A stretch of DNA of 10,559 nucleotides from a virus (taxonomy: Duplodnaviria > Heunggongvirae > Uroviricota > Caudoviricetes). Below, piece after piece: positions 1,421-1,898 of this stretch. Under the pieces are notes generated by a model that saw only the letters and a program-made list of their open reading frames with translations, was not told the origin of the DNA and made no database searches. Position numbers and translations under genes: made by a program. How positions within the stretch are numbered: the stretch's first letter is position 1; every line of letters starts with the position of its first letter. The stretch lies in the IMG/VR virus record IMGVR_UViG_2526164631_000029, one strand, 5' to 3'.

Positions 1421-1493
1421 TATTATTTTACTCATGTTCTAACTGATTTAATATTTATATCGAACACTGATAATTATTCTATTGGTTAGCTAT

Positions 1494-1832
1494 ATGAACA
1501 AAACGATTTTATTCTGCACGATTATTGCCTTAACAGGATGTAAATCTTTGGATTACGTAAAATCCGGAAAACCTGTAATGGAAGGTAATTCATTAAAAAA
1601 TATTGATGAATTGTCAGGCTGCATATCCAGACAATGGGCTGGTAATGGAACACCTATAACATCCCTTCCTATTGAGAATGGGGTAAGCCTTTTAGTTCCA
1701 CAGGCTATGGGGGGATATGATGTTGTGCTTGATATCAAAAAAGCAGGAAATGGCAGTAGTTTTACTCTTTATGAACGTGTACCAGCATTAACGCCAAAAA
1801 TTTTTGCTGATAGTGTTAATGCATGTAAATAA
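1494..1832 (+). CDS. Hypothetical small lipoprotein (112-aa precursor); moron inserted between I and J
   Basis: The supplied ORF (1482-1832) begins at a TTG; the in-frame ATG at 1494 gives MNKTILFCTIIALTGC, a classic lipoprotein signal peptide with lipobox LTGC and Lys at +2 (no Asp inner-membrane retention signal). The gene is strongly AT-rich against GC-rich flanking tail genes and is followed by a hairpin terminator. Two further Cys in the mature part. No family recognised by eye. Confidence 0.6.
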   Translation: MNKTILFCTIIALTGCKSLDYVKSGKPVMEGNSLKNIDELSGCISRQWAGNGTPITSLPIENGVSLLVPQAMGGYDVVLDIKKAGNGSSFTLYERVPALTPKIFADSVNACK

Positions 1833-1856
1833 TAGTTAATCCTGTCGTAACTCATG

Positions 1857-1884
1857 AGCCGCCTTTTGGGCGGCTTTGTTGTTT
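1857..1884 (+). terminator. Rho-independent terminator downstream of the lipoprotein gene
   Basis: Stem AGCCGCC / GGCGGCT with a 5-nt loop TTTTG, followed by the T-rich tract TTGTTGTTT. Lies just upstream of the J ribosome-binding site. Confidence 0.6.
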
Positions 1885-1898
1885 ATGGAGTGTGAGGA

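Follow-up and report, generated by a model that had tools for sequence, protein, structure and literature searches.

A predicted outer-membrane lipoprotein encoded as a moron in the tail-gene cluster of lambda-like Escherichia coli prophages: a candidate phage-entry exclusion factor uncoupled from the J receptor-binding domain

Introduction

Why does a lambda-like prophage carry a small AT-rich gene between tail genes I and J, directly upstream of the gene for host specificity, and does its product serve that neighbour? The locus lies in IMG/VR record IMGVR_UViG_2526164631_000029, a stretch of 10,559 nucleotides that we refer to in its entirety as the window (position 1 is its first letter), which represents the tail end of a lambda-like Escherichia coli prophage with the gene order K, I, small open reading frame (ORF), J, lom, side tail fibre and insertion sequence (IS) DNA. 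The small ORF encodes a 112-aa lipoprotein precursor. A first-pass annotation made from the DNA alone suggested, as a hypothesis, that this could be a receptor-masking or lysogenic-conversion factor paired with the J allele beside it; we describe here evidence that the lipoprotein gene is a mobile moron (an extra transcription unit between conserved phage genes, as defined for HK97 and HK022) that moves without regard to the J receptor-binding domain, and we tentatively propose that it acts against the entry of other phages at the cell envelope. Phage lipoproteins such as Cor and Llp are a textbook means of closing the cell to later phages and, to our knowledge, only the FhuA-directed exclusion lipoproteins are understood.

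Results

Near-identical lipoproteins adjoin four classes of J receptor-binding domain

The features of the locus on which the argument depends are as follows, all on the + strand of the window.

779–1420, I, tail tip gene, homologue of lambda gpI and left flank of the insertion (PF06805 Lambda_tail_I, E = 4e-24; stop codon TAA at 1418–1420)
1421–1436, left remnant of the ancestral I-J spacer, including copy 1 of a direct repeat (ACTCATG, 1430–1436)
about 1437–1856, inserted AT-rich cassette of about 420 bp, ending in copy 2 of the direct repeat (ACTCATG, 1850–1856) and delimited by junction alignment
1437–1493, AT-rich leader 5' of the ORF, any promoter in it being putative
1494–1832, lipoprotein precursor gene, PHROG 914 family, 112 aa plus stop, ORF intact
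1494–1541, signal peptide with lipobox LTG/C (aa 1–16), Cys16 predicted to be lipidated, Lys at +2
1620–1622, codon of the invariant Cys43, whose predicted disulfide partner is Cys111 (1824–1826)
1856–1886, terminator-like site, a G+C-rich hairpin (1856–1876) and an interrupted T-run directly 5' of the J ribosome-binding site
1899–5378, J, tail tip and host-specificity gene and right flank (six gpJ Pfam domains; 83% identity to lambda J overall)
4896–5378, J C-terminal receptor-binding region, last 160 aa, class A (44–47% identity to lambda)

Over about its first 830 residues the J protein is almost the same as lambda J; beyond them the two diverge, the last 160–170 residues being 44–47% identical to their lambda counterparts. 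The gene is mosaic in this part (window 4400–5378), with an extra 27 residues beyond the conserved portion. If the lipoprotein were the partner of this particular J allele the two should travel together, and the pairing was examined in E. coli-type IMG/VR loci with a 98–100% identical lipoprotein and a readable J C-terminus (n = 45), which fell into four classes by comparison with the window J C-terminus.

Window type, 32 loci, same class
Second class, 5 loci, 64% identity
mEp460 type (class C), 6 loci, 44% identity
HK022-like, 2 loci, similarity undetectable

In the other direction, the window J C-terminus is 99% identical in many long-tailed Stx1a/Stx2a phages and in PhiR5_1 and PPompW phages, while a close copy of the lipoprotein was found in none of 50,697 deposited phages, which yielded distant homologues only (about 30% identity). 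The phage mEp460 itself has the class C domain, yet its I-J spacer is the empty 60-bp form. As a 99–100% identical lipoprotein stands beside four J classes, and the window J class occurs in phages that lack the lipoprotein, the pairing with the J allele suggested in the first-pass annotation is unsupported.

The cassette is an insertion in a lambda-type I-J spacer

Between the end of gene I at 1420 and the start of J at 1899 lie 478 bp (1421–1898), whereas in lambda (NC_001416) the gap is 60 bp, I ending at 15444 and J beginning at 15505; the spacers of mEp460, PhiR63_1 and Evi, which have no cassette, are 60 bp as well. The contrast in spacer length that had been noted in the first-pass annotation is thus correct, and so is its impression, gained by eye, that the cassette is strongly AT-rich: G+C content is 0.22 in 1421–1493, 0.36 in the ORF and 0.345 in the 1437–1856 insert, compared with 0.57 in both I and J. 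Alignment of the junction with lambda relatives, which had been suggested as a check, shows that the insert is about 1437–1856 and not the whole gap, and that no equally long spacer is present in these relatives. Joining 1421–1436 to 1857–1898 gives a spacer of 58 bp, and in the alignment 46 of its positions agree with the 60-bp lambda/mEp460 spacer; the lambda_2E9, mEp460, PhiR63_1 and Evi spacers share the form TGA-TGCAAAATGTTTTATGTGAAACCGCCTCCGGGCGGTTTTGTCGTTTATGGAG...ATG.

Matches to the I-J flanks were found in 107 deposited phages and in none of these do they extend over the insert, which, with its absence from lambda, mEp460, PhiR63_1 and Evi, agrees with the view that the cassette was inserted. 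The polarity of the event (insertion as opposed to loss in the lambda lineage) follows from the junction alignment and should be read with that in mind. The ACTCATG repeat at the two ends may reflect duplication of the target or joining at a microhomology, but it is no more than a hint, because flanking repeats of 7 bp turn up by chance in about 5% of shuffles. The reconstructed insert-free junction gave no full-length match, that is, no exact empty site, in 5,426 complete E. coli genomes, and in the same set the hairpin variant of the window occurs in 336 genomes and the cassette in 337; these near-equal counts and the lack of an exact empty site point to a single origin of the E. coli I-J arrangement. 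By the definition given above the gene has two of the attributes of a moron, in that it separates genes which are immediate neighbours in related phages and its base composition is unlike that of its flanks. The contrast in composition recurs in five homologous loci elsewhere, where the G+C content of the lipoprotein gene is 0.41–0.43 and that of the flanks 0.50–0.56.

The ORF encodes a conserved lipoprotein of the PHROG 914 family

The 112-aa product begins MNKTILFCTIIALTGC/KS, and the part of the precursor up to the cleavage site, MNKTILFCTIIALTG/C, satisfies a PROSITE-type lipoprotein rule (a basic residue near the N-terminus, a hydrophobic stretch and, at positions 15–35, the lipobox [LVI][ASTVI][GAS]C), in agreement with the lipoprotein precursor with Lys at +2 that had been read from the sequence. 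Close relatives (48–62% identity) are present in Kluyvera, Klebsiella, Enterobacter and Jejubacter. A profile search of 1.84 billion representative proteins gave 121 clusters at E <= 1e-3, and a second protein search with a broad profile added few named proteins. The lipobox is present in 131 of the 135 retrieved family proteins of 90–200 aa; Asp at +2 occurs in none of these 131, the window protein having Lys, and 116 of them have exactly two Cys after the lipobox. Among 38 diverse members the only invariant columns are C16, C43 and C111, and the lipobox and the three Cys are kept down to about 25% identity. The ratio of non-synonymous to synonymous substitution rates (dN/dS) is 0.06–0.10 for the closest pairs and at most 0.31 overall, indicating purifying selection. 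The lipobox, the three invariant Cys and the low dN/dS together argue that the ORF is no chance frame and that it encodes a real, constrained lipoprotein with an export signal; a 61-aa minus-strand ORF (1553–1738) that is antisense to this conserved coding frame was taken to be spurious. Lipoproteins lacking Asp at +2 are sorted by the Lol system to the outer membrane, which by this rule is also the predicted location of the present protein, on the periplasmic side. Conservation likewise makes a Cys43–Cys111 disulfide a reasonable prediction.

The first-pass annotation had not recognized the family. A scan of PHROG profiles returned phrog_914 alone, a PHROG to which no function is assigned, as a full-length match (E = 7.3e-33, residues 1–112 against 1–118 of the 118-column profile), and no characterized protein of unrelated function was matched. 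Searches of Pfam (E <= 0.01), NCBIfam, PADLOC and PDB sequences gave no match to the lipoprotein except for a noise-level match of its signal peptide to VirB7. Members of the clusters are named in databases only as hypothetical protein, Lipoprotein or Phage protein, and we found no characterization of WP_001332187 (the E. coli protein), phrog_914 or the family in the literature.

AlphaFold2, run with an 11-sequence alignment, gave a model with a predicted local distance difference test (pLDDT) score of 84.5 and a predicted template modelling score (pTM) of 0.75, in which the signal peptide is followed by a predicted strand, a helix, four strands and a C-terminal helix. The sole strong match in a viral structure library is an uncharacterized protein of Pseudomonas phage phiAH14a (template modelling scores 0.70/0.83, 25% identity), which is a member of the family. 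Otherwise the best structural neighbour is Flpp3, an outer-membrane virulence lipoprotein of Francisella, and the N-terminal domain of BamC is also similar; identity of the lipoprotein to Flpp3 (DUF3568) and to the BamC domain is 6–12% and there is no Pfam match to DUF3568, so that the likeness does not extend to membership of a sequence family.

The gene moves among three tail-gene junctions

The cassette is present in 337 of the 5,426 complete E. coli genomes (about 6%), and carriers include UTI89 (sequence type 95 lineage), APEC O1, S88, IHE3034, the type strain ATCC 11775 and the O104:H4 outbreak lineage (protein WP_001332187). In every phage locus examined the family gene lies within a lambda-type tail cluster, on the strand of the tail genes and at one of three junctions.

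I-lipoprotein-J, E. coli lineage
K-lipoprotein-I, the commonest, in Klebsiella, Kluyvera, Serratia phage OS31, E. coli phages Fraca and LMessi and the more distant loci L091–L094
T-lipoprotein-tape-measure (T, tail chaperone), Enterobacter HK97-like prophages

In one locus (L069) the gene is part of a 5-kb cargo region between K and I, and a scan of genome contigs for related loci yielded a single one. Its history differs from that of its neighbours: Fraca and a Kluyvera prophage have 92% identity in K and 69% in I and only 26% in the lipoprotein, whereas for E. coli and the Kluyvera prophage the values are 35% for K, 38% for I and 54% for the lipoprotein. The uncoupling of the lipoprotein tree from the K and I trees and the use of three junctions suggest a moron that is exchanged horizontally at hotspots, and these, with the foreign base composition, bear out the earlier proposal of a horizontally acquired moron. 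The same hotspots hold annotated morons in HK97 and HK022, at the junction of T with the tape-measure gene (gp15), at K-I (HK022 gp20) and at I-J (gp22 and gp23/srb).

Several observations on the occupants of these sites should be recorded. HK022 gp20 at K-I (L095:4749-4973) resembles the HK97 exclusion protein gp15, and the K-I gap of HK97 (L097:6060-6285) contains a gp20 reading frame with an in-frame stop that looks like a decayed copy. LMessi (L002:3647-3994) and Fraca (L001:3725-3994) have two tandem lipoprotein genes at K-I, the first encoding an unrelated 115-aa lipoprotein (MRKFLSILACSLIIVGC...) with no Pfam match and the one after it the PHROG-914 member. A third, unrelated lipoprotein type of 140 aa is found in phiAH14a in the arrangement K-x-lipoprotein-I (L096:3548-5310). 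In phiAH14a a second gpI copy is preceded by a PHROG-914-like remnant beside the cI repressor gene and on the cI strand (L089:5910-6948), and the satellite phiAH14b carries a gpI-plus-lipoprotein pair (PMC4936722); these pairs hint at a functional link between gpI and the lipoproteins.

A hairpin upstream of J probably belongs to the ancestral junction

The hairpin at 1856–1876 has a 9-bp stem with 6 G-C pairs, is followed by TGTTGTTTAT and has a predicted folding energy of -21.5 kcal/mol (z = -2.0). It had been described as the cassette's own terminator and, while the hairpin is certainly there, its ownership is doubtful: homologues are found in the gene-less lambda_2E9, mEp460, PhiR63_1 and Evi spacers, with changes in both stem arms that keep the pairing, so that the hairpin appears to belong to the ancestral junction and is not demonstrably part of the cassette. 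In the five homologous loci elsewhere each lipoprotein gene is followed by a hairpin and T-run.

Similar modules are found at other places in these clusters. A G+C-rich hairpin, a T-run and then TTTATGG(A/G)G with the start codon precede J in the window (1856–1898) and in four spacers (L004, L005, L006 and L007), moron-less lambda-type phages included; near-alike modules lie 5' of both I and J in HK97 (L097:6300-6335, 7600-7641) and 3' of the lipoprotein gene in Fraca, Serratia OS31 and Enterobacter prophages. The module may be a conserved junction element of the tail operon or a scar of lost morons.

Flanking genes and the 3' arm

The remaining features of the window are listed below.

282–881, K, NlpC/P60 and JAB domains
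5446–6045, lom
6196–7509, short side tail fibre gene, collagen-like
7548–9119, 9139–9486 and 9486–10067, all minus strand, tnpC, tnpB and tnpA of an ISCro1-like IS66-family element
10143–10523, strand opposite to the tail genes, IS3-type integrase-core fragment beyond the IS66-family element

The side tail fibre gene encodes 437 aa with collagen repeats, and the ISCro1-like element starts 39 bp downstream of it. No tail fibre assembly gene was found in this arm of the window (6196–10523) and, with IS DNA abutting the side tail fibre gene, the prophage arm appears to be disrupted. The stretch 5300–7700 is 100% identical to E. coli FDAARGOS_1059 and to the O111:H2 strain 12A.

Discussion

A proposed role in exclusion of phage entry

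Our preferred reading, to which we attach a probability of about 0.45, is that the lipoprotein is a phage-entry exclusion factor of the cell envelope that works independently of the J specificity of its own prophage. It would be processed by signal peptidase II and, having no Asp at +2, sorted by the Lol pathway to the inner leaflet of the outer membrane, where it would present to the periplasm an alpha/beta domain of about 95 residues stabilized by the predicted disulfide. There it might inactivate a protein of the outer membrane by acting on its periplasmic face, in the way that Cor and Llp act on FhuA, or it might obstruct a step after receptor binding, as gpI and gpH enter the outer membrane and periplasm. 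In a lysogen, a transcript started locally would end at the native hairpin before J, and Q-modified late transcription would read through it. Exclusion is favoured because the same junctions hold the proven exclusion protein gp15 and the gp15-like HK022 gp20, because exclusion lipoproteins near a J-like hub are a known theme in siphoviruses (PMC11990801), and because unrelated lipoprotein genes recur at K-I (LMessi, phiAH14a and the gpI pair of the satellite). In addition gpI is a plug in the virion, and it has been proposed that its hydrophobic helices pass into the outer membrane together with the attached gpH C-terminus (PMC11101478; PMC12617516), so that an outer-membrane lipoprotein facing the periplasm would be well placed to interfere.

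A narrower version of this idea, which we regard as a long shot, is that PHROG-914 is a new class of superinfection exclusion that acts after receptor binding, by blocking either insertion of the plug formed by gpI and the gpH C-terminus or formation of the periplasmic channel by gpH. If true, it would explain why lipoprotein genes settle repeatedly in the K-I-J cluster and are indifferent to the J receptor-binding domain, and also the gpI-plus-lipoprotein pairs of a Pseudomonas phage and its satellite.

Several observations weigh against exclusion in either form. The lipoprotein is homologous neither to Cor, Llp or Bor nor to any defence model in PADLOC, and its predicted fold, being common to unrelated DUF302, KA1 and Bet v 1 proteins, gives no hint of activity. 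It does not co-vary with J, I or K, so that linkage points to no target on the phage side. On the + strand between 1300 and 2000 there is no sigma-70-like promoter site with at least 9 of 12 matches, the best candidate by eye having 8 of 12 (TTTACT-16-TAATAT, 1427–1454), and there is no obvious Shine–Dalgarno sequence before the lipoprotein ATG. In relatives the gap upstream of the gene is only 6–86 bp; with gaps so short and no promoter-like site found, the gene may be expressed only late. Lastly, a non-phage island next to alaS-csrA contains a distant member of the family (28% identity; L080:8001-8357), so the family is not strictly phage-borne. The neighbours of that gene in the island are many small ORFs without a Pfam match, a DDE transposase and an LprI-like lipoprotein.

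Alternative roles

The difficulty over promoters leads directly to the possibility of a late lytic function, in which the gene is co-transcribed with the tail operon and its product, by inactivating a receptor or envelope component of the dying cell, keeps progeny from being wasted on debris and vesicles. T5 Llp and T1 Cor are credited with such protection of progeny as a second role (PMC11990801), and the tail-gene orientation seen in every phage locus fits it as well as the lack of room for a promoter does. We nevertheless think it improbable: such a function needs a match to the phage's own receptor, against which the J-class data argue, the conserved hairpin and T-run after each gene fits an independently terminated unit, and late in infection Lol sorting would have little time to matter. 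The need for a matching receptor is shared by the proposal from which this study started, that of a masking lipoprotein which excludes phages with its own J allele, as Llp does for pb5 or Cor for the FhuA phages. In its favour are the position of the gene directly 5' of J, the predicted outer-membrane location and the window-type J class at 32 of the 45 readable loci. These have to be set against the three other J classes beside a near-identical lipoprotein, the Stx, PhiR5_1 and PPompW phages that have the window J C-terminus and are among the deposited phages without a close lipoprotein copy, the empty spacer of mEp460, the absence of any relation to Cor or Llp by sequence or fold and the fact that most other lineages place the gene away from J, at K-I or between T and the tape-measure gene; altogether a J-matched mask seems to us distinctly improbable.

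A role in lysogenic conversion, in which the protein would serve host fitness or virulence in the manner of Bor/Iss or Lom (serum resistance, adhesion or tolerance of envelope stress), is a more serious contender, though still unlikely. The raw list of carrier strains contains many extraintestinal and diarrhoeagenic pathogens (UTI89, APEC O1, S88, IHE3034 and O104:H4), the prophage arm is shared with lom, the best structural neighbour is the virulence lipoprotein Flpp3 and the island member also fits. However, there is no Bor/Iss Pfam match, and a fitness role does not predict the strict placement in lambda-type tail clusters, in five genera and at the junctions used by exclusion morons. To the idea of a decaying or functionless hitch-hiker we give almost no credence. 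Frameshifts or truncations affect a few copies (P0002, P0018 and L066–L068), but most E. coli-type IMG/VR copies are intact at 98–100% identity, dN/dS is 0.06–0.3, the lipobox and three Cys persist to about 25% identity and a fold is predicted with confidence.

Significance

A lipoprotein moron in a tail operon is in itself no surprise to the specialist, and the family is already in databases as PHROG 914 and as hypothetical proteins in RefSeq. The interest lies in the spread among pathogens (about 6% of complete E. coli genomes, and prophages of Klebsiella, Enterobacter, Kluyvera and Serratia) combined with the use of exclusion-gene junctions. If the lipoprotein does block entry it would bear on the host range of therapeutic phages in these pathogens, and it would offer a way into a poorly understood stage of DNA delivery by siphophages, the one at the outer membrane and in the periplasm. 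If it proves to be a fitness factor instead, it is a widespread and unannotated surface-associated protein of pathogenic E. coli.

Comparison with known systems

Some assignments could be discarded at once. An o-spanin (Rz1) or unimolecular spanin was ruled out by the I-J location, by a globular model that ends in a short helix and by the lack of a C-terminal transmembrane segment, and a structural tail protein was rejected on location, Pfam results and the export signal. Lambda Bor/Iss is a closer parallel, as an outer-membrane lipoprotein of about 100 aa made by prophages, expressed as a moron in lambdoid phages and conferring serum resistance, but its gene is in the lysis region and not in the tail cluster, and the window protein has no match to PF06291 in Pfam (E <= 0.01).

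HK97 gp15 and HK022 gp20 share with the lipoprotein gene their junctions (gp15 between T and the tape-measure gene, as in Enterobacter; gp20 at K-I, as in Klebsiella, Kluyvera and Serratia), and they are likewise small envelope proteins, followed in their case by a terminator and in that of the lipoprotein by a terminator-like hairpin. They differ in being single-pass YebO-type inner-membrane proteins of 62–74 aa with an uncleaved N-terminal transmembrane helix and no lipobox, whereas the lipoprotein has a lipobox and a predicted globular domain, and there is no sequence similarity as judged by eye. What is shared with the YebO-like exclusion proteins is genomic position alone. Expressed from the prophage, gp15 excludes phages by blocking the entry of their DNA, an effect in which the receptor plays no part and that hinges on the tail of the superinfecting phage (PMC3594210).

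The two systems invoked in the first-pass annotation remain the obvious points of reference. T5 Llp is a lipoprotein that blocks FhuA from the periplasmic side and is encoded next to the receptor-binding gene, and the window protein resembles it as a predicted outer-membrane lipoprotein with a predicted disulfide whose gene adjoins that for host specificity; it has neither the sequence nor the fold of Llp. Cor (phi80, N15, HK022, T1 and mEp167) is an outer-membrane lipoprotein that inactivates FhuA. It too is a small lipoprotein made by phages from a gene of the tail region, one that the HK022 annotation calls a moron, and its precursor combines a lipobox with a single internal Cys and a Cys-Lys C-terminus in which the Cys is penultimate, but at 77 aa it is shorter than the 112-aa protein, its gene is downstream of J and it travels with FhuA-dependent phages. 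The last property, that of travelling with phages that use the blocked receptor, is contradicted for the window lipoprotein by the four J classes. When a 38-member profile was compared with HK022 Cor by hhalign only 30 columns aligned (the signal peptide and about 15 mature residues), and PHROG and Pfam make no link between the two, so there is no homology of the mature proteins on which to place the lipoprotein in the Cor family, and what had been offered as an analogy to Cor and Llp does not amount to kinship by sequence or fold.

There are nevertheless small features in common. The motif C-x3-5-[LV]-[RKE]-x2-3-K-P-[VI] after the lipidated Cys is found in Cor (L095:10739-10972), in the 140-aa lipoprotein of phiAH14a (L096:4239-4661) and in PHROG-914 (window 1539–1590), and the C-terminal Cys-Lys end is common to Cor and the PHROG-914 family; the post-Cys motif may serve all of them as a tether or in sorting, or the likeness may be due to chance. 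The window gene is of a known category, that of phage morons for envelope lipoproteins to which Cor, Llp and Bor belong, and its family stands outside all three by sequence and by modelled fold. Unlike Cor and Llp, it is, on the evidence of the loci compared here, uncoupled from the receptor-binding domain of the phage that carries it.

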